NCBI GenBank assembly: GCA_028877195.1 | Contig: JAPPIL010000181.1 | Span: 1-13,691, forward strand | Length of the DNA stretch: 13,691 nucleotides | Source: Pseudomonadota bacterium | GTDB taxonomy: Bacteria; Bdellovibrionota_B; Oligoflexia; Oligoflexales; JAPPIL01 | Reading direction: 5' to 3' | Shown: piece after piece, positions 465 through 12,134 of the stretch | How positions within the stretch are numbered: the first letter of the stretch is position 1 | Layout of the letters: the number at the start of each line of letters is the position of its first letter | Translations under genes and position numbers: made by a program | The notes under the pieces: generated by a model | Databases searched by the model: none | Told to the model about the DNA's origin: nothing | Seen by the model: the letters and a program-made list of their open reading frames with translations, nothing else

Positions 465-577
465 AAATGTTTATTTTGGCATAGTCGCAAATATCCAGCT
501 GCCCAGCTTAAATTTAAAAGAAGGGTCGATGATAAAAACTAAATGTTTATTTCAGCAAGGTCGCAAATCTGCGGTGG
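465..577. repeat. Imperfect 29-bp direct repeat (TAAATGTTTATTTyrGCAwrGTCGCAAAT), two copies 73 bp apart. The second copy (540-568) is the last 9 codons plus stop of the ATPase gene. The first copy (467-495) lies just downstream of it.
   Basis: Direct comparison of 467-505 with 540-577 shows about 25 of 29 identical positions, after which the two sequences diverge. Confidence 0.5.
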
Positions 578-1399
578 ATCGCCGCGCTGAAGGATAAGGG
601 CATGCACCGAATCGCCGAGCATTTCTGGTTGAAATGAACTCGTGTATAAGGACAGCAGAAACCTTATCCTTGCCTGCACTTGGCGGCTCGATTCGGCATG
701 TAGGGTTGTTAACAAGCCGAGATGACCAATGGTCATAGCTTTGACAAAGGCGATAATTTCTTGCCCACGGATTTCTCCGATAACGAAACGATCGGGGCGC
801 AGACGCAATATTTCTTCAATCAACACTTCCATACTTGTATCACCCTGTGTTTGGCAACGCATCCACAGCGATGACATAAGCGGCAACTCAACGATAGATT
901 CAAGAATTGCCAGCCGCTCCTGTTGACACACTGCACGCAGTAGCGAAGCGAGAAAGGTTGTCTTGCCACTAGACGTTGAGCCGCAGACCAGCAAAGGTTT
1001 GTAGCCACGCACATGTGTCAGACAGTCGTCGCAAAGATTGTGCGGGTCGTTAAAATCAGCTAAGGTCAAGGCAGTAAACTCGTGTCGTCGCAGCGACACT
1101 ACTGCGCCATCGATTGCCACAGGTGGAATCAGGCAGTGCCAACGGACGTTATGTTCGTGTAGATAGCCACCACTGTATGGTTTGAGCGGGTCAAGGCGAA
1201 CTCCTTGCGAGAAGGAAAAATCCTGTAGCCAATGCACCATCTCCTGTTCGTTGGCGAAGATGGAGGGCAGGACTTTGCGTTTACCAGCAGTGTAGACGAC
1301 AACTGAACGGGTGCTGTTAATTAAAACTTCGTCAGTCGTGCGATCGGAGAAAAAGCGGTCGATGATGTCAGTAATATCAGCGCTGCTAATTGCGGAACC
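539..1399 (-). CDS. CpaF/TadA/VirB11-family (type II/IV secretion-type) ATPase, unusually small (about 287 aa if the whole open frame is used). The first ATG is at 1240, but the conserved N-terminal region is encoded upstream of it, out to 1399, with no canonical start codon.
   Basis: Walker A is GSTSSGKTT. The Walker B/His-box region is RPDRFVIGEIRGQE...TIGHLGLLTTLHAES. The Asp-box-like region is RLAILESIVEL. The upstream in-frame segment ...TDEVLINSTRSVVVYTAGKRKVLPSIFANEQEM matches the CpaF N-domain pattern (I.vNG...v.vER.GK...V...F.DE..L). The frame stays open to 1399 and contains only ATT/ATC/CTG as possible starts. Confidence 0.65.
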   Translation of the reverse strand, partial: GSAISSADITDIIDRFFSDRTTDEVLINSTRSVVVYTAGKRKVLPSIFANEQEMVHWLQDFSFSQGVRLDPLKPYSGGYLHEHNVRWHCLIPPVAIDGAVVSLRRHEFTALTLADFNDPHNLCDDCLTHVRGYKPLLVCGSTSSGKTTFLASLLRAVCQQERLAILESIVELPLMSSLWMRCQTQGDTSMEVLIEEILRLRPDRFVIGEIRGQEIIAFVKAMTIGHLGLLTTLHAESSRQVQARIRFLLSLYTSSFQPEMLGDSVHALILQRGDPPQICDLAEINI

Positions 1400-2983: not shown

Positions 2984-4363
2984 CTATGCGACAGTGCGTT
3001 TCGTGCGGCAGAGGAACATAGCAAGCAACAGTAGCAGTGCGATGAGCGGGTATTTGAGGAGCATAACCATCGCTAACGGCAAGAGTAGCAACGCTTGCGC
3101 CAACACTTTCAACAGCGCATTACTACTGATGTGTGTCGCTAACGCAGGGGAATGCTCGTAGTATAGGGCAACGAGCTTGCGCCCGCTAGCGTAGGGCAAC
3201 AAGAAACGATCGCGAAACCAGCGCAACTGTTTAACGATAACTGCATCTGACCCATAGGCAGCGGTGGCGATAAAACAATGGAGGTCATGCCGTTTAGCTT
3301 CACCCAAATCGTTGAGTTCCAACAGTGTTTTGTTTTCAATCGCCGCAGCCTCCATGCACACACTGCGAGCGATGCCGTCAGGGTAATGCTGTAGCATAAT
3401 CTGATAGACGACACCAGGCTTGAGGTCAGGTATTGAATCGCTACGTCCCGATAGCAGGGTTGAATTCGACAAGGCAGGAATCTTGCCAACCTCATCATAA
3501 GCAAGATAAACATTAGGTGTTGGGCAAGAGATGCTACAGTCTGGCAACCATTGACATTCAGCATCAGCTGGCAAGTCGGTATCCCCACCAGCAGCGACAG
3601 GTCTGAATACTTTGGCAATCGAGACAAGCGACACGGGTTCGGTGCTTTTCGCCAGCACATAGGCAACGACCCCACGCACAGGCTGTTTGCCCTGCGAGTT
3701 TGTGAATTCAACGACATTCTCCCGCTGCATTTCAACCTGCAAACGATGATGTAAAGCCGTTACCCCCGTTAACTTCGGCGCAACACTAGGGACACCATCA
3801 ATGCGAATGAACTCATGCGTTATCGCTGCCAACAGCCCACCATAAGAATCTACCCCCCAGACACGATACGCAATTCTAACCTTAAGCTTACCGCTATCAT
3901 CATAGAGAGCATTTAAGTTATCCTCGTAAGCCCTAATCGCAATCTCATAATAAACCGTCGTATTGCCATTGATATTAGGCTCTTCCTCCACCTCGCGATC
4001 GACAGGCACAAAGTAGTAGTCTCGATGGTGGCTAACATTTGGCGTTGAGTCCTGTTCATTCGCATGTTCTCTCGCCTGCACTGGCGATTCATAATGCGGC
4101 AATGGTAATTCACGACTGTCGGCATCACTGTCAGGCAACGTTACCCATAACCTTGCCCAGATATTTTCCTCGCCATCCTTGAGGGCAACATCACTCGGTA
4201 GGATGTCATCAATCGTGAAGCGAACCGTCAGTTGCCTAGTATCCTGCTGACGAGGCAAGCTGACATCGCTAACGCTAATCTTAATATCGGCGTATACTTG
4301 AAGAGAGAAAAGCGCGGTGGCAAGGCTTGGCAACAGTCGGTTAAATGGTAATCTCCAATCCAT
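2984..4363 (-). CDS. Secreted or surface protein, 459 aa. It has a cleavable N-terminal signal peptide (cleavage after ...LQVYA) and a C-terminal tripartite sorting-signal-like domain: CFIATAAYGS motif (3248..3277), a conserved LRWFRDRFLL...YY..SP segment, a hydrophobic helix and the basic tail CRTKRTVA.
   Basis: The N-terminus MDWRLPFNRLLPSLATALFSLQVYA-DIK is a typical Sec signal. The C-terminus CFIATAAYGSDAVIVKQLRWFRDRFLLPYASGRKLVALYYEHSPALATHI...YPLIALLLLLAMFLCRTKRTVA matches the architecture I recall for CFI-box-type C-terminal putative sorting domains. The central about 330 aa are acidic, with a Cys cluster (AECQWLPDCSISCPTP), and have no family I recognise. Confidence 0.7.
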   Translation of the reverse strand: MDWRLPFNRLLPSLATALFSLQVYADIKISVSDVSLPRQQDTRQLTVRFTIDDILPSDVALKDGEENIWARLWVTLPDSDADSRELPLPHYESPVQAREHANEQDSTPNVSHHRDYYFVPVDREVEEEPNINGNTTVYYEIAIRAYEDNLNALYDDSGKLKVRIAYRVWGVDSYGGLLAAITHEFIRIDGVPSVAPKLTGVTALHHRLQVEMQRENVVEFTNSQGKQPVRGVVAYVLAKSTEPVSLVSIAKVFRPVAAGGDTDLPADAECQWLPDCSISCPTPNVYLAYDEVGKIPALSNSTLLSGRSDSIPDLKPGVVYQIMLQHYPDGIARSVCMEAAAIENKTLLELNDLGEAKRHDLHCFIATAAYGSDAVIVKQLRWFRDRFLLPYASGRKLVALYYEHSPALATHISSNALLKVLAQALLLLPLAMVMLLKYPLIALLLLLAMFLCRTKRTVA

Positions 4364-5276
4364 CGTAACCAGCTAATACTCGCAAAGAAGAGTTATGTCC
4401 ATTGCTAGCCGCAATTTTATCAGCATAGGTAACCGCATCCTCACATTTGCGATGAATATCGCTGTCAACAGCATCAGGTGAATGATGCACCAGCACTATG
4501 TTAGAGATATTCTCACGGAACGCAAGATCAATACCACGCGCAGGGCTGGAATGTCCCCAATCATAGTGTTTCTCTAATTCGTGCGGTTCATAGTGGCTGT
4601 CAAAGATGAGATAATCAAGGTTTTGATAGCAGACCAAGTCCTTCCCCAATTCTTCGGGGGTGCTGCGATCGAGTTTAGTGTCTAATGCCACTGCCACCGA
4701 CTTGCCATCGACATCAAAGCGATAGCCGTAGGCATGCCCAGGATGATCAAGTGTAAATGGAGTTATCGCCACGCCATCCACCTCTACTAGGGTGCGGGTG
4801 GCAAGCTGATGAAAGTTTATCTCTGCTTCAATATTTTGCCATAGCACGGGGAAGTTTATGCCATTGAAGAGCAGTTCCAGATGCTTGGCGGCGTAGCTAT
4901 GGACATGATAAATATCCACCACCGAACCATGCTCATACAAGGGTGAGAAAAAGGGCAAGCCGATGACATGATCCCAATGCAGGTGCGTTAAGAAAACCTT
5001 ATGATGCCTAGACCTCTCGCCAATTTGACGGCCGTAGTCCACCAACCCAGTGCCGAGATCAATGATAAAACTACCGCTATTGTGCTTGATTTCAATACAA
5101 GTGGTATTGCCACCATAGGTAAGTGGTCTTGCCAGCCCCTTGAGGGTCGCACGCAGTTTATCGGTATCGTTGGTTAGCTGCTCGTTTTGTGCAAGACCAA
5201 CCAACATTTCAACTAAAGAGTCATGTGATACTGAACGTGGGCTTGAGCCGCGTGTGCCCCAGAATTTTAACTTCAT
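4341..5276 (-). CDS. MBL-fold metallo-hydrolase (metallo-beta-lactamase superfamily, PhnP/RNase Z-like subgroup), 311 aa.
   Basis: The zinc-binding signature HLHWDH (HxHxDH) is present. The N-terminal MKLKFWGTRGSSP is typical of this subgroup. Further His/Asp ligands sit at DHPGHAYGY and VLVHHSPD. The 3' end overlaps the start of the next gene by 23 nt. Confidence 0.75.
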   Translation of the reverse strand: MKLKFWGTRGSSPRSVSHDSLVEMLVGLAQNEQLTNDTDKLRATLKGLARPLTYGGNTTCIEIKHNSGSFIIDLGTGLVDYGRQIGERSRHHKVFLTHLHWDHVIGLPFFSPLYEHGSVVDIYHVHSYAAKHLELLFNGINFPVLWQNIEAEINFHQLATRTLVEVDGVAITPFTLDHPGHAYGYRFDVDGKSVAVALDTKLDRSTPEELGKDLVCYQNLDYLIFDSHYEPHELEKHYDWGHSSPARGIDLAFRENISNIVLVHHSPDAVDSDIHRKCEDAVTYADKIAASNGHNSSLRVLAGYDGLEITI

Positions 5277-5332: not shown

Positions 5333-6286
5333 CTAAAAAAGCTGATGTTTGCCGAGACTCAAGATAAATTTCTTCGGATTGGTGGGACGACCGTTGACCC
5401 AAACCTCATAATGAAGATGAGCACCAGTTGATCGCCCTGTTGAGCCAACAGTGGCTATTTGGTCGCCGCGAGCAATTCTTTGCCCTACAACAACTAGGTT
5501 GTGAGCGTTATGTCCGTAACGCGTTACTACTCCATGCCCATGTGCAATCATAATGAAATTGCCGAAGCCTTCTTTTGTGCCTGAAAAAATTACCACTCCA
5601 TCTGCAGGGGCATAGATGGGTTTACCTACCGATGTCGCAATGTCAATGCCATAGTGTTTCTGGCGCTTGCCCGTGAACGGTGAGGTGCGATAACCAAACC
5701 CACTGCTTACCCAGCCATCAACTGGCGAAATCGCAGGGATAGACGATAACAGCGAGCGTTTCTTGCCTAATCGTGATAGGAGGCGCTGCATATCAAAAAT
5801 ATTTTGATGCGCACTATTCTCGATTTCAGTCAGTTTGCTGAAGAGATCGCTATGCACCATATCGCTAATCTTAACACCGTCAAAAATCGCACTGCTGTCA
5901 AGCGTAGCGCTCTTTTTGAACTCTTCATACTCGTCTTCGGTCAATGCCCCAATGCCAAGATGCTTTCTGGCTTTTTTGTTATTCAAGTGCATCAAATCAT
6001 TAAGCTGATCGGTGTAGCTCCCAACCACCCGTAAACTTTGCTTGACTTCACCAAGTCTCTCATTCAAAATCCGCACCTCGGCCTGCAGACTGTGGTGCTC
6101 GACTTTTAGTTTGCTAAACCCCCTGACCTCATCATGCATCTTGATATAGTCAAGTGCGAAAAAGACCGCAGCAAACAGCACCGCCAAACCCAACAGCGCC
6201 GCAAGCCTAAGCACCAACTGCGGCATCGCGAACGACCGCGTCATATCCGTTCCGTCTGGTATCAACACTAGCGTAATTTTCTTCAA
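5333..6286 (-). CDS. Membrane-anchored M23-family (LytM-domain) metallo-endopeptidase with an intact catalytic site, 317 aa.
   Basis: The N-terminal TM helix is LVLRLAALLGLAVLFAAVFFAL. It is followed by a coiled-coil-like charged region. The C-terminal M23 domain has HxxxD (HYGIDIA) and HxH (AHLHYEV) zinc ligands plus a G-rich core GFGNFIMIAHGHGVVTRYGHN. The TTG start at 6286 has AGGAAT 9 nt upstream. Confidence 0.8.
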   Translation of the reverse strand: MKKITLVLIPDGTDMTRSFAMPQLVLRLAALLGLAVLFAAVFFALDYIKMHDEVRGFSKLKVEHHSLQAEVRILNERLGEVKQSLRVVGSYTDQLNDLMHLNNKKARKHLGIGALTEDEYEEFKKSATLDSSAIFDGVKISDMVHSDLFSKLTEIENSAHQNIFDMQRLLSRLGKKRSLLSSIPAISPVDGWVSSGFGYRTSPFTGKRQKHYGIDIATSVGKPIYAPADGVVIFSGTKEGFGNFIMIAHGHGVVTRYGHNAHNLVVVGQRIARGDQIATVGSTGRSTGAHLHYEVWVNGRPTNPKKFILSLGKHQLF

Positions 6287-6289
6287 GGA

Positions 6290-6420
6290 TTAGATTCCTA
6301 ATTAAAATTAAATTTCTAATTAAATTTCTAATTAAATTTCTAATTAAATTTCTAATTAAAGTTCTAATTAAAGTTCTAATTAAAGTTCTAATTAAAGTTC
6401 TAATTAAAGTTCTAAATCAT
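6290..6420. repeat. AT-rich 12-bp tandem repeat array. Three copies of TTCTAATTAAAT (6314-6349) are followed by five copies of TTCTAATTAAAG (6350-6409), with degenerate copies flanking both sides. It abuts the M23 peptidase start codon.
   Basis: Direct reading shows a perfect 12-nt periodicity over about 96 bp and decaying copies at each end. It is located at -4 to about -135 relative to the M23 peptidase start at 6286. Confidence 0.9.
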
Positions 6421-6427
6421 GTGGTTT

Positions 6428-6733
6428 AATAAAAATTACTTGCCATATACGACCACACAGAGGGACTGTTTGTCGCAGGGGGAAGTATCCCCCGTGCACC
6501 CCCTCCTTAAAAAACTTGCTGATTTTATCGTTGCTCATAAGCATAAATCTACTTGTCTTAAAAATTACCTGCCACATACAACCACACAGAGGGACTGTTT
6601 GTCGCAGGGGGAAGTATCCCCCGTGCACCCCTCCTTAAAAAACTTGCTGATTTTATTGTTGCTCATAAACATAAATCTACTTGTCTTAAAAATTACTTGC
6701 CATATACGACTACACAGAGGCTGCCTATCCTTC
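6428..6733. repeat. Tandem direct repeat of a 129/128-bp unit, 2 full copies plus a roughly 35-bp partial third copy. Each unit contains a GC-rich stem-loop GCAGGGGGAAGTATCCCCCGTGC (first copy 6475..6497).
   Basis: The unit start AAAAATTAC occurs at 6431, 6560 and 6688. The copies are more than 95% identical, with a few substitutions and a 1-bp deletion in copy 2. An inner 5-bp G/C stem has a 6-nt loop and is flanked by the complementary GAGGG...CCCTC. Confidence 0.85.
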
Positions 6734-6783
6734 CTGTGTCTTCCTCGGCAAGCATGCCGAAAACATAAGTAAACTATGCTTTG

Positions 6784-7551
6784 CTATTTGGCTGCAACCA
6801 CAACGATAGTGATATTATCCTTTCCGTCTCGCTCATTAGCAAGGTCAACCAAACTTTCGACTGCTTTGAGTCTCTCCTTGCTCACACATAGAGAAATCTC
6901 TGCATCGCTAATCATGCCATGCAATCCATCTGATGATAAAACATACATATCACCAACCTCAACCCCAACGACGTGAGTATCAACATCTTCCTCCTCTTGG
7001 CAACCGACACTACGAGTTATGATGTTGCTAGCGACAGCCTTGTCCTCCCCGCTATGGGACTCTTTCCCGTGCCGCTGTTGATATTCATTAGCAAGGGAGT
7101 GGTCATTGGTAAGTTGATAAATAAAACGACTACGCACCAGATACACCCGACTGTCGCCAACATGGGCGATATATGCCTTGCTATTGATGAACAGTAGCAA
7201 CGACACGGTCGTTCCCATGCCGCTCAACTTTGGTTCTTCCAATGCCCGCTCGTAGATTTTGGTCGAAGCGAGGTTAACCGCAGTGCGGAGAATTTCAAAT
7301 ACATGCCCATCGATGCTTGTGCCGATGATTTTGTCTTTGCCAAGTTGACGTATTCTGTCAACGACATAGCCAGACACTATTTCAACGCACATACTACTCG
7401 CTACTTCACCGCCAGCATGACCACCCATGCCATCAGCTACGATGTAAAGCCGAGTGTTGCCGTCGATGAGGTAGGTGTCTTGATTGGAGTTTCTAACTTG
7501 ACCTATATCGGTCAGACCTCTCGCATCTATACGCATCAGTTGCTTGATCAA
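6784..7551 (-). CDS. PP2C-family Ser/Thr protein phosphatase (Stp1/PrpC-like), 255 aa.
   Basis: PP2C motifs appear in order: LTDIGQVRNSNQD, ADGMGGHAGGEVAS, SGMGTT, VGDSRVYL, SSDGL and DNITIVVV. Confidence 0.8.
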   Translation of the reverse strand: MIKQLMRIDARGLTDIGQVRNSNQDTYLIDGNTRLYIVADGMGGHAGGEVASSMCVEIVSGYVVDRIRQLGKDKIIGTSIDGHVFEILRTAVNLASTKIYERALEEPKLSGMGTTVSLLLFINSKAYIAHVGDSRVYLVRSRFIYQLTNDHSLANEYQQRHGKESHSGEDKAVASNIITRSVGCQEEEDVDTHVVGVEVGDMYVLSSDGLHGMISDAEISLCVSKERLKAVESLVDLANERDGKDNITIVVVAAK

Positions 7552-7597: not shown

Positions 7598-8101
7598 CTA
7601 CAAATTCAATGCCTGCCGTAGAAATTCTTGCGATACCTCACCAGTTGTGTGGAAACGCACAACGCCTTGGCGATCAATGATAAATGTTTCTGGGACACCT
7701 GTAAGACCATAGTCGATGCCAATTTTGCCAGCAACGTCAAGAGCTAGTGGGTAATTTTTACCGTAGCGGTCAGCAAAAACTCTCGCATCACGGTGCTTGT
7801 CATGCACGGCTAGCCCCACCACTGCCAGCTTATCACGATGCCGTTGCCACATTCTCTCCAGCAAGAACGATTCCTGCCGACAGGCCATGCACCAGCTTGC
7901 CCAAAAATTCAAAATAACCGCCTGCCCTTGCGCTAGCTCTGCGGTTGATTGTAGCCAGTCGGCCTGTTCGATGCTTGGAGCTGGTTTGCCGATCAACGGG
8001 TGGGGAATCCTGCTCTTACCTAATCCACGACCGAGCAAATAAACCAGCCCCCCAGCCAAGCCGAGTAGGAGCGCACAGATGATTAGGTGTGAACGCTGCA
8101 T
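7598..8101 (-). CDS. ccmG: Thiol:disulfide oxidoreductase CcmG/DsbE (cytochrome c maturation).
   Basis: It has an N-terminal membrane anchor, LIGKPAP, the thioredoxin active site WASWCMACRQE (CxxC) and GLTGVPETFIIDRQGVVRFHTTGEV. All align closely with E. coli DsbE/CcmG. The ATG at 8099-8101 overlaps the ccmE stop as TGATG; the track start is a TTG one codon upstream. Confidence 0.8.
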   Translation of the reverse strand: MQRSHLIICALLLGLAGGLVYLLGRGLGKSRIPHPLIGKPAPSIEQADWLQSTAELAQGQAVILNFWASWCMACRQESFLLERMWQRHRDKLAVVGLAVHDKHRDARVFADRYGKNYPLALDVAGKIGIDYGLTGVPETFIIDRQGVVRFHTTGEVSQEFLRQALNL

Positions 8102-8559
8102 CAATCTTCTAGGAGTGATTTGATCAGCAACTCTTTGTTTTCAATCTTGTTGTCGTGTGGGACACGATATTCCTCTGAATGCTTGACCATCAGGGTGTGG
8201 GTTTTCATCGCCTTGTTTGTCGCATCAAAATACCCTTCAGCCACCACCCCCTGTCCCTCCCGAAACAGGTCTGGTGCTATGCCTGTATGCTTGACCTTTA
8301 TGTTATGCCCTTTGAAATCAGTGATGGTGAAGCGCAAGATATGTTTGCCAGCTGCTGCTTCATCGTTGGTCTGCTCTTCAACGCTGCCCGCCATGACCAT
8401 GCCGCCAATCTTGATATTCTTGTTGCGCAAATTTTCCCCAGCCGCAAACGCTTCCGATGGTGTGTAGAAATAAACCAAGTTGCCGCCAAGATTGACCAAC
8501 GAAATCACCAGCACAGCCGCGGCGATAACCGCTAATCCGATAACCCATTTAGTCTTCAT
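8101..8559 (-). CDS. ccmE: Haem chaperone CcmE (cytochrome c maturation).
   Basis: Signature segments are LVYFYTPSE, GGMVMAGSV, DLFREGQGVVAEG and the haem-binding KHSEEY (His/Tyr). The likely start is the internal ATG at 8557-8559 (MKTKWVIGLAV...), which overlaps the ccmD stop. The longer track ORF (to 8631) is probably an over-extension. Confidence 0.8.
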   Translation of the reverse strand: MKTKWVIGLAVIAAAVLVISLVNLGGNLVYFYTPSEAFAAGENLRNKNIKIGGMVMAGSVEEQTNDEAAAGKHILRFTITDFKGHNIKVKHTGIAPDLFREGQGVVAEGYFDATNKAMKTHTLMVKHSEEYRVPHDNKIENKELLIKSLLED

Positions 8560-8677
8560 GATTCTCCTGCAGAGTTGCGAGTAACTTGTGTAGTTTACCG
8601 CGCTCCCAATACAGGTAGACGATGAAAGCAACCAAAGCTACAAAACCAATCACATACACTGACACTAGCGCTAGCAT
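8549..8677 (-). CDS. ccmD: Small haem-exporter subunit CcmD (42 aa, single TM helix); not in the supplied ORF track.
   Basis: Reverse-complement ATG at 8675-8677 gives MLALVSVYVIGFVALVAFIVYLYWERGKLHKLLATLQENHED*. AGGAGA lies 12 nt upstream. Its stop sits inside the ccmE start codon region. Size, single TM helix and position match CcmD. Confidence 0.55.
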   Translation of the reverse strand: MLALVSVYVIGFVALVAFIVYLYWERGKLHKLLATLQENHED

Positions 8678-11285: not shown

Positions 11286-12134
11286 CTATACATGCTGGCG
11301 CACTAAATCACGGCAGATGTCTCTGGGAATACCCATGCTGAACAATGAGTCCATCGCCACATTAGCGATAGATGCTTGTAGATCAAAGTGGCTAGCATTA
11401 CCTGAATTCGTGAATACGGGTTGATGAGCATCGATCAAGGCGACCTTGTTCGCACCGAGCACTCGTTTCATATAGTCCACACTCGGTTGAACATTTTCAA
11501 CATAGAACACATATCTTGAACGCAACGACCCTTCGGTATCATCATCACGCTCACGTTGTTTGGCGCGCAGCATCATTTCTTGTTTGCTGATACTCAAGTG
11601 CAGAAGTTTGATTATCGGAATCTTGTAGCGATTCAAGTAAGAGATAAGATGCTTGGCTGCCGCAACCGTGCGTGGATAACCATCAAGGATAAACGACTGG
11701 TCTTGAATATCCTCCGAAATCTCAATCCGAGATTCAATAAAACATTTTGTCCAACGGTCAGGCACAAGCAAACCATTCTGGGTGCAAAACTCAAGCCAAT
11801 CAAGTTGCGAGATGCCTTTAGCTTGTATCCGCTTATCGCCAAAGTATTCCTTTAGGTTAGGCATAAAACGATTAACTTTGGCAATCAATTTCGCATCAGC
11901 ATCAACACACGAAAAAATATCGGACTCTGAACTAATATGATAACGGTCGGCTAACATCTTGGCATAATCGGGATTGCGTTGTGCCTCATTAAACGCAAAG
12001 CGCAATATCGCACCCATCGACAGGTGTAATGACGTTGGGATCGAAAGAGCCTTGCTTAAGAACACTGCCACCTCACCCTTGCCGCAGCTAGACGGCCCTG
12101 TGAGAATTATCGCACCGCGATTCTTAAGTCGGAT
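11286..12134 (-). CDS. Adenylate-kinase-family (NMP kinase) protein, short-LID type, with a roughly 60-aa C-terminal extension. The track start (GTG at 12071) cuts through the P-loop, so the true 5' end lies upstream at about 12134, with no canonical start codon.
   Basis: NMP-binding GAILR, FILDGYPRT and the LID/R-rich RAKQRERDDDTEGSLRSRY are all present. Immediately upstream and in frame are ...IRLKNRGAIILTGPSSCGKGEVAVF, the P-loop GxxxxGKG. The open frame extends to a TAA at 12162-12164. The only start candidates are ATC (12132-12134) or ATA. Confidence 0.6.
   Translation of the reverse strand: MRLKNRGAIILTGPSSCGKGEVAVFLSKALSIPTSLHLSMGAILRFAFNEAQRNPDYAKMLADRYHISSESDIFSCVDADAKLIAKVNRFMPNLKEYFGDKRIQAKGISQLDWLEFCTQNGLLVPDRWTKCFIESRIEISEDIQDQSFILDGYPRTVAAAKHLISYLNRYKIPIIKLLHLSISKQEMMLRAKQRERDDDTEGSLRSRYVFYVENVQPSVDYMKRVLGANKVALIDAHQPVFTNSGNASHFDLQASIANVAMDSLFSMGIPRDICRDLVRQHV

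Follow-up and report, generated by a model that had tools for sequence, protein, structure and literature searches.

In C-terminal sorting signals that contain a cysteine, the Cys motif abuts the transmembrane (TM) segment and the whole signal measures roughly 25–40 amino acids. Four such signals have been surveyed, and in each of them the Cys is invariant in the signature (doi 10.1101/2023.06.07.544157). Here we analyze the C terminus of an exported protein that is encoded on the reverse strand of a 13.7-kb stretch of DNA from a Pseudomonadota bacterium (13,691 nt, contig JAPPIL010000181.1 of assembly GCA_028877195.1; the whole stretch is called the window throughout). The protein carries a CFI-box domain, which opens with the signature CFIATAAYGS. 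The CFI-box resembles the Cys-containing signals in that an invariant Cys lies in a signature that opens the C-terminal homology region, in that a TM segment and a basic cluster usually follow, and in that it is found on signal-peptide proteins with unrelated passengers. Unlike these signals, it has about 50 conserved helical residues between the Cys motif and the TM segment, the latter is dispensable in a quarter of the members, and no CPBP-type or other sorting enzyme is encoded nearby or recurs among the loci. Our analysis established the family membership of the window protein, the anatomy, conservation and modularity of the domain, the optional nature of the TM segment, and the pairing of the gene with one for a metallo-β-lactamase (MBL)-fold hydrolase.

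Results

Membership of the CFI-box-CTERM family

The open reading frame (ORF) was translated into a protein of 459 residues followed by a TAG stop (2984–2986). The protein is identical to OYH77_05660, an NCBI entry from a metagenome-assembled genome (MAG) that is annotated as 'hypothetical protein' of a Pseudomonadota bacterium. A scan of NCBIfam gave a single match, to the hidden Markov model (HMM) NF041770, 'CFI-box-CTERM', for which the curated cutoff is 40 bits; the full protein scored 71.2 bits (E = 4.5e-20) and the last 118 residues scored 74.1 bits (E = 5.7e-21). A preliminary description of the window, made from the letters alone, had located CFIATAAYGS exactly (nt 3277–3248, residues 363–372), on a signal-peptide protein with a hydrophobic stretch and the tail CRTKRTVA, and had assigned the signature to a C-terminal sorting-domain class. 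Since the match to NF041770 lies above the cutoff, such a class exists and the window protein is a member of it. The Pfam scan of the whole protein and of its C terminus gave nothing significant, and Pfam has no model for the CFI-box domain; a hit to FpoO (E = 0.13) was discarded as non-significant. The domain has no sequence match to solved structures. At the DNA level, a degenerate pattern for the motif matched once in the window and not at all in 200 shuffled sequences.

Conservation was assessed in an alignment of 132 sequences. Seventeen positions are invariant: C363, F364, A366, T367, A368, A369, Y370 and G371 in the signature, which amounts to eight of its first nine positions, and further downstream L380, R381, F383, R384, D385, Y401, Y402, P406 and A409. 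The same conserved positions were recovered from 15 diverse C termini, so the LRxFRD and YY..SP positions that the preliminary description had singled out for alignment are conserved in both sets. Together, the alignments and the structural models described below depict the CFI-box as a peptide of the type CF[IV]ATAAYG[ST] followed by three conserved, predicted helices (LRxFRD, YYxxSPxA and LRxxVRxxLxP). Cys363 is located 97 residues from the C terminus; the mode of the family is 100–115, and the distance is 75–123 residues in 107 of 113 ORFs.

The distribution of the domain was determined by several searches. A word-index search with the 104-residue C terminus returned one match and was uninformative; a profile search and an exhaustive phmmer search were used instead. 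The profile search of the word-indexed database yielded at least 2,382 matches, with passengers that include PF18998, RHS, DUF11/CLIPPER, Big_5 and TPR. The phmmer search (residues 356–459 against 1.84 billion cluster representatives) yielded 11,102 proteins at E≤1e-3; these are 50%-identity clusters and the number is a lower bound for the occurrence of the domain. The CFI-box is thus a modular domain of about 65–70 residues, reused on thousands of unrelated exported proteins. The taxonomic spread was estimated with a degenerate DNA pattern for CFIATAAYG in species-representative genomes, which gave at least 120 matches from 120 assemblies. Among the matches listed, the bacterial carriers belong to Dehalococcoidia, Hydrogenedentota, Geobacterales, Desulfuromonadaceae, Nitrospirota, Syntrophales, Myxococcota, Gammaproteobacteria, Bacillota, Parcubacteria, Omnitrophota and Planctomycetota, and the archaeal ones to Halobacteriota, Bathyarchaeia and Nanohalarchaeota; cultured carriers are Citrifermentans bremense R1, Geomonas propionica and Nitratidesulfovibrio. 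The class had been described as one found mainly outside model organisms, and this agrees with the predominance of uncultured or non-model lineages (Dehalococcoidia, Geobacterales, Nitrospirota, Hydrogenedentota and some archaea) among these matches. Its presence here had been called unusual, which it is not: with at least 11,102 clusters, many of them from Pseudomonadota, the broad spread of the domain makes its occurrence in a Pseudomonadota-labelled MAG unremarkable.

The window protein is an ordinary member of a known and catalogued, functionally uncharacterized domain family. A search of the literature found no paper on the CFI-box-CTERM domain or on the motif strings, and the survey of Cys-containing C-terminal signals by Haft (doi 10.1101/2023.06.07.544157; the myxosortase paper) does not mention the CFI-box. 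Like other members of NF041770, the protein has the signature, LRxFRD, YYxxSPxA, a signal peptide, and a TM segment with a basic tail (about 71% of members). It departs from the family in having HDLH before the Cys, where a Gly-rich linker is usual, SPA where the consensus has SPP, an unusually hydrophobic helix 3 and a short final TM segment. Unlike other members, it has as its passenger a β-sandwich plus a fibronectin type III (FN3) domain with a four-Cys insert, for which there is no family model, and with its orthologues it forms a separate group that is linked to an MBL-fold gene.

Domain organization of the window protein

The features of the protein and of the genes discussed here are collected in Table 1. 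The N terminus, MDWRLPFNRLLPSLATALFSLQVYA followed by Asp, shows by eye the n, h and c regions of a Sec signal peptide. The Ala at position −1 (Ala25) is near-invariant among the 24 family members aligned, and a signal peptide was seen in the window protein and in all 24 (by eye, no predictor). A full-length AlphaFold2 (AF2) model, based on a 132-row alignment, had a mean predicted local distance difference test (pLDDT) score of 80 and consisted of a signal-peptide helix (residues 4–18, low confidence), two β-sandwiches and C-terminal helices at residues 375–388, 392–414, 416–437 and 439–458 with pLDDT values of 83–93. A model of the domain alone reproduced the helices of the full-length model and had a predicted TM-score (pTM) of 0.52 as a monomer. 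In both models the CFI peptide had a pLDDT of about 50 or lower.

Table 1. Positions of the features of the window protein and of two neighbouring genes.
Feature	Coordinates	Strand	Remarks
Whole ORF	2984..4363	-	exported FN3-like protein with CFI-box-CTERM domain; 459 aa plus stop
Predicted Sec signal peptide, aa 1-25, cleavage after VYA	4289..4363	-	read from sequence; Ala25 near-invariant
N-terminal beta-sandwich domain, aa 27-186	3806..4285	-	AF2 strands, pLDDT 66-89
FN3-like domain with Cys-rich insert, aa 195-345	3329..3781	-	
CFI-box signature CFIATAAYGS, aa 363-372	3248..3277	-	family-invariant Cys363 is the fifth, unpaired Cys
NF041770 CFI_box_CTERM HMM match, aa 363-426	3086..3277	-	profile positions 1-65 of 69
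Helix 1 with invariant L-R-x-F-R-D, aa 375-388	3200..3241	-	AF2 pLDDT about 90
Helix 2 with invariant YY..SP..A, aa 392-414	3122..3190	-	alignment and AF2
Helix 3, aa 416-437	3053..3118	-	last conserved element (L..[VA][RQ]..L.P)
Terminal hydrophobic segment PLIALLLLLAMFL, aa 439-451	3011..3049	-	
Basic C-terminal tail CRTKRTVA, aa 452-459	2987..3010	-	
MBL-fold metallo-hydrolase	4341..5276	-	HLHWDH motif; no signal peptide; WGTRGS N-terminus; immediately upstream of CFI gene
M23 peptidase	5333..6286		

The N-terminal β-sandwich has no Pfam or NCBIfam match. The second domain of the passenger passes the fold test for FN3, being a seven-stranded β-sandwich that superposes on FN3 structures. It differs from the FN3 domains of cell-surface proteins in giving no detectable sequence-family match and in having a Cys-rich insert between strands. 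C270, C276, C280 and C336 of the insert are invariant and probably form two disulfides. A metagenome scan with an alignment of the FN3 region (the narrower version) yielded no confirmed relatives.

Downstream of CFIATAAYGS the protein continues with DAVIVKQLRWFRDRFLLPYASGRKLVALYYEHSPALATHI, a 39-residue hydrophobic stretch (SSNALLKVLAQALLLLPLAMVMLLKYPLIALLLLLAMFL, interrupted by KYP), CRTKRTVA and the stop; the conserved helical motifs read LRWFRD (residues 380–385) and YYEHSPALA (residues 401–409). Helix 3 is strongly hydrophobic in the window protein and amphipathic in several variants that lack the TM segment (hydrophobic moment 0.46–0.54). The terminal hydrophobic segment and the end of helix 3 form the membrane anchor, and the tail would be cytoplasmic by the positive-inside rule. 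No promoter or terminator signal above background was found around the CFI gene. The base composition of the window is even and thus gives no sign of recent acquisition.

Comparison with tripartite sorting signals

Haft's 2023 list of attributes of tripartite C-terminal signals was used as the standard of comparison. The CFI-box shows the location near the C terminus, the invariant starting motif, usually the basic cluster, the N-terminal signal peptide and the unrelated passengers. It lacks attribute 4, a TM segment directly after a short signature. Cys363 lies 70–75 residues upstream of the TM segment (which begins at about residue 434–439), the distance being roughly 60 or more in other members, and about 50 conserved residues, confidently helical in AF2, lie between the motif and the membrane. 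The curated HMM, with 69 positions, stops before the TM segment.

Among 113 complete ORF ends taken from genome loci, 80 have a TM segment plus basic tail, with a mean of 3.3 Lys/Arg residues in the last ten positions of the TM-bearing members (the window tail has RTKR); 27 (24%) stop right after helix 3, without a TM segment. The same division is seen among the 18 non-redundant orthologues that are linked to the MBL gene (see below): nine have a TM segment and tail and nine end just after helix 3, so that the TM segment is dispensable even inside one orthologous group. Eight of the nine TM-less orthologues (L137, L148, L149, L151, L156, L160, L162, L164 and L175) end in '...YY' or '...WY', of the type D(A/E/S/W)YY; the other, L137, ends in '...ASKQN'. 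The remaining six of the 113 ORFs run on beyond the TM segment and basic cluster, and five of these have a second segment resembling a signal peptide and then one more domain. In L031, L032, L038, L060, L106 and P0014, the ORF passes from the TM segment and basic cluster into a signal-peptide-like hydrophobic segment (e.g. ...AYA|AQ) and then a β-rich domain. Such run-on ORFs (about 5%) suggest either a fusion of genes or a two-TM hairpin that joins two parts outside the cytoplasm. In the representatives P0140, P0142, P0144 and P0014, the domain is internal or duplicated. The window has one copy of the CFI-box and locus L080 has two in tandem; the genome scan listed at least 120 matches from 120 assemblies.

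Gly directly precedes the Cys in 88 of 137 proteins, as part of a Gly-Gly pair in 68; in the window protein's own family, H, K, S, R, N or A takes its place. Because the residue before the Cys varies, there is no conserved P1 position.

Overall, with a spacer of about 50 residues and with the TM segment absent from 27 of 113 ORF ends and 9 of 18 orthologues, the CFI-box fails the architectural core of a classical motif-TM-Arg sorting signal. The preliminary description had put the TM helix and basic tail together with the motif; both are present in the window protein, but they do not define the family, since the HMM ends before them and 24% of the members lack them. It had also named a motif inside a larger globular domain, and not at a processed terminus, as a finding that would count against its view. 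The motif opens a predicted helical domain of roughly 65 residues and does not sit directly on a TM segment, which speaks in part against that view.

Pairing with an MBL-fold hydrolase gene

The stop of the MBL gene overlaps the start of the CFI gene by 23 nt in the window, and the same overlap is seen at L001; in the lineage of the window the two genes are probably co-transcribed, with translational coupling. At the loci of full-length homologues of the window protein (25–68% identity), an MBL gene lies immediately upstream on the same strand in five of six lineages and is the sole recurring neighbour. The MBL proteins are orthologues, 41–83% identical over their full length. In a reciprocal test, metagenome contigs were scanned with the MBL alignment, and matches of at least 38% identity with at least 1.5 kb of downstream sequence were kept. 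In 18 of these 21 loci, a strict CFI motif was present 1068–1386 nt downstream on the same strand; in the remaining three the motif is altered (CFIATTAYG, CMVATAAYG), and these gave matches to the N-terminal family HMM at about 1e-40. The pairing was thus seen in 21 of 21 loci at or above 38% MBL identity versus 0 of 25 for MBL relatives below 38%. The previously unannotated conserved pair of an MBL protein and a roughly 450-residue FN3/CFI-box protein is found in the window and at L001–L006, L009, L133–L165 and L200.

Like the phosphodiesterases of the RNase Z/ElaC type, the MBL partner has the Lactamase_B_2 fold and an HxHxDH motif, and among solved structures those of RNase Z come closest to it (E = 9e-9), as remote relatives. 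Unlike them, it scores far below every equivalog cutoff (e.g. 55.8 versus 293 bits) and represents an uncharacterized subfamily with a WGTRGS N terminus. No MBL gene was found beside unrelated CFI-box proteins at the loci checked. The gene accompanies the FN3/CFI-box family and not these unrelated proteins; the partner therefore tracks the passenger family and not the CFI-box. Having no signal peptide, the MBL protein is cytoplasmic and cannot process a periplasmic CFI motif. It was rejected as the processing enzyme on these three counts, namely the lack of a signal peptide, its absence beside unrelated CFI-box proteins and its tracking of the passenger.

Other genes in the window and at CFI-box loci

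No gene for a sortase, exosortase, rhombosortase or CPBP-type protein was found in the 13.7-kb window. The M23 peptidase was rejected as a processing enzyme, being absent from all homologous loci. Besides these, the window encodes a PP2C phosphatase, DsbE, CcmE, an SPFH protein, a pyridoxal-phosphate-dependent decarboxylase, an APH/AmgK-like kinase, a pentapeptide-repeat protein and a short T2SSE-type ATPase. Neighbour clustering over 120 unrelated CFI-box loci revealed no recurrent partner family; the commonest neighbours were an ABC ATPase (8 loci), a PilT-like ATPase (5) and a PilC-like (PilC/GspF-like) protein (4), and the PilT- and PilC-like genes may represent a weak enrichment or chance. 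The suggestion that the CFI gene lies next to candidate processing genes is therefore not borne out: the M23 peptidase and the other neighbours, with the exception of the MBL gene, are absent from homologous loci, no known sorting enzyme is encoded in the window, and no partner recurs at the 120 unrelated loci.

Several neighbouring genes have features of their own. The ATPase ORF (539..1240, reverse strand; T2SSE/VirB11/TadA family) has 233 residues, covers profile positions of about 103–276 of 370 and falls well short of all equivalog cutoffs; the ORF may have been truncated or have degenerated. An adenylate-kinase-like ORF (11286..12071, reverse strand, 261 residues, GTG start) matches adk only from profile position of about 54, with 64 bits against a cutoff of 187; it seems either to lack the P-loop region or to have an unrelated N-terminal stretch of about 95 residues in its place. 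The ccmE gene (8101..8631) and a dsbE/ccmG-type thiol:disulfide oxidoreductase gene (7598..8104), both on the reverse strand, overlap by 4 nt, and no other ccm genes are present in the window; the ccmE ORF is extended at the N terminus by about 20 residues, so that its true start is probably internal. Between the genes for the M23 peptidase and the PP2C phosphatase there is a gap of about 500 nt (6287..6783) that contains only short ORFs. The lowest guanine-plus-cytosine (GC) content of the window (0.41, positions 6001–7000) is found at this gap, together with a strong negative GC skew. No transfer RNA or Rfam element was detected in the window, this gap included.

Discussion

On balance, the CFI-box probably serves as a folded module for anchoring or docking beside the membrane, here on a Sec-exported, membrane-tethered FN3-like protein, and not as a classical short motif-TM-Arg signal that is cleaved by the product of a neighbouring gene. 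The window protein would be exported via Sec as a signal peptide, two β-sandwich domains (of which the second resembles FN3 and probably has two disulfides), the CFI-box, the anchor and a short basic tail. The C-terminal TM segment would then hold the passenger domains on the outer face of the cytoplasmic membrane, with the tail in the cytoplasm. The invariant peptide with its single Cys might be contacted or modified by a partner, for which the membrane interface, a second protomer and an enzyme are candidates. Both the anchoring or docking role and the role of Cys363 are what we infer from the comparisons above.

Several points weigh against the anchoring or docking role. No experiment or publication on the CFI-box domain was found, and the role is deduced. 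Model confidence is lowest for the CFI peptide, the segment with the highest conservation, and a purely structural domain would be expected to pack it. The strict invariance of a nine-residue peptide with a lone Cys is more typical of a recognition or reaction site of an enzyme, which keeps processing in play, and the family shows most of the attributes of sorting signals in Haft's list. Finally, only 13 hydrophobic residues follow KYP, which makes the exact membrane topology uncertain.

In principle, the CFI-box could be a true C-terminal sorting signal, for which a membrane enzyme encoded elsewhere (many substrates, one enzyme) would recognize CF[IV]ATAAYG[ST], cleave at or near the Cys and move the passenger to a lipid or envelope acceptor; the Cys would be modified, as proposed for MYXO-CTERM, JDVT-CTERM and CGP-CTERM. 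The '-CTERM' name given by the NCBI curators and attributes 1, 3, 5, 6 and 7 of Haft's list point in this direction, as does the invariance of the Cys, which the CFI-box has in common with the four surveyed signals (doi 10.1101/2023.06.07.544157). The Cys usually follows a Gly-rich linker (GG in 68 of 137), the motif is unstructured in the AF2 models, like a linear recognition peptide, and a many-to-one system predicts that no enzyme is encoded nearby. However, Cys363 lies 70–75 residues from the TM segment with about 50 conserved helical residues in between, a spacer that puts the motif out of range for an active site within the membrane, in contrast to the situation in tripartite signals. 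Moreover, 24% of the members and half of the orthologues of the window protein are without TM segment or basic tail, the domain is internal in about 5%, subfamilies differ in the residue that precedes the Cys (G, H, K, S or R), and the survey of Cys-containing signals does not mention the CFI-box. We therefore regard a sorting signal as unlikely, yet as the strongest competitor of an anchoring or docking module among the single mechanisms considered. A dimeric or trimeric display of the passengers, without any processing, is less probable still: the CFI peptide and helices would pair the chains into an oligomerization stalk, with Cys363 in an inter-chain disulfide. The small-residue-rich invariant peptide (A-T-A-A-Y-G), the long helices, the low monomer pTM of 0.52, a motif that cannot be placed in monomer models and an odd number of periplasmic Cys residues in the window protein (four in the FN3 insert plus C363) are in keeping with such a stalk. 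The family is, however, concentrated in anaerobes and occurs also in archaea, where extracytoplasmic disulfides would be less dependable.

The commonest sequence around the Cys, GG-C-F, resembles the GCF site of Hedgehog proteins and raises the question of self-processing, in which Cys363 would undergo an N-to-S acyl shift (intein/Hedgehog chemistry, G|CF) and the thioester would be resolved by water or by an envelope nucleophile, so that the passenger is released or attached. The residue before the Cys is variable, as at intein junctions, the invariant T367, Y370, R381, R384, D385, Y401 and Y402 could form a catalytic site, and no external enzyme was found at 120 loci. Yet Hint domains are β-rich, comprise about 130–150 residues and have a TXXH block, whereas the CFI-box has about 65 residues, is all-helical in two AF2 models and has no Pfam or PDB match; in size and in fold it does not conform to the Hedgehog/intein type. 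With no match to solved structures and no direct evidence of cleavage, we consider self-processing very improbable. Lipobox and Hint readings were ruled out by position and fold. Least probable of all, to the point of being negligible, is a generic membrane anchor whose resemblance to the motif is fortuitous. The hydrophobic C terminus is the one feature that speaks for it, as against the E value of 4.5e-20 to a curated HMM, the 17 invariant columns and the absence of any match in 200 shuffles. Chance resemblance was excluded on the same grounds, and the earlier opinion that this C terminus is far too patterned for a generic anchor was sound.

More speculatively, the CFI-box could be the substrate or reaction module of an undescribed, widespread extracytoplasmic attachment or processing system, with the Cys modified or cleaved by a partner or autocatalytically and independently of the TM segment, and the MBL and FN3/CFI-box genes could form a functional two-gene unit. 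An action independent of the TM anchor would account for the quarter of members that lack one. We regard this combination as doubtful, about on a par with a sorting signal.

For the window, an entry annotated as 'hypothetical protein' becomes an exported FN3-like protein with a C-terminal TM tether and a named C-terminal domain, and the suggestion of a local processing system is removed. The conserved MBL pairing and the dispensable TM segment are additional, modestly interesting facts beyond membership of a known family. Among the C-terminal modules that exported proteins of prokaryotes carry, the CFI-box itself is one of the larger, its 50%-identity clusters numbering more than 11,000 in many phyla and in some archaea. 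Its function is narrowed by three results: the TM segment is dispensable, a folded helical unit lies between motif and membrane, and the invariant peptide is the part that the models leave unplaced. These results offer handles for experiments in the cultured carriers Citrifermentans bremense, Geomonas propionica and Nitratidesulfovibrio.

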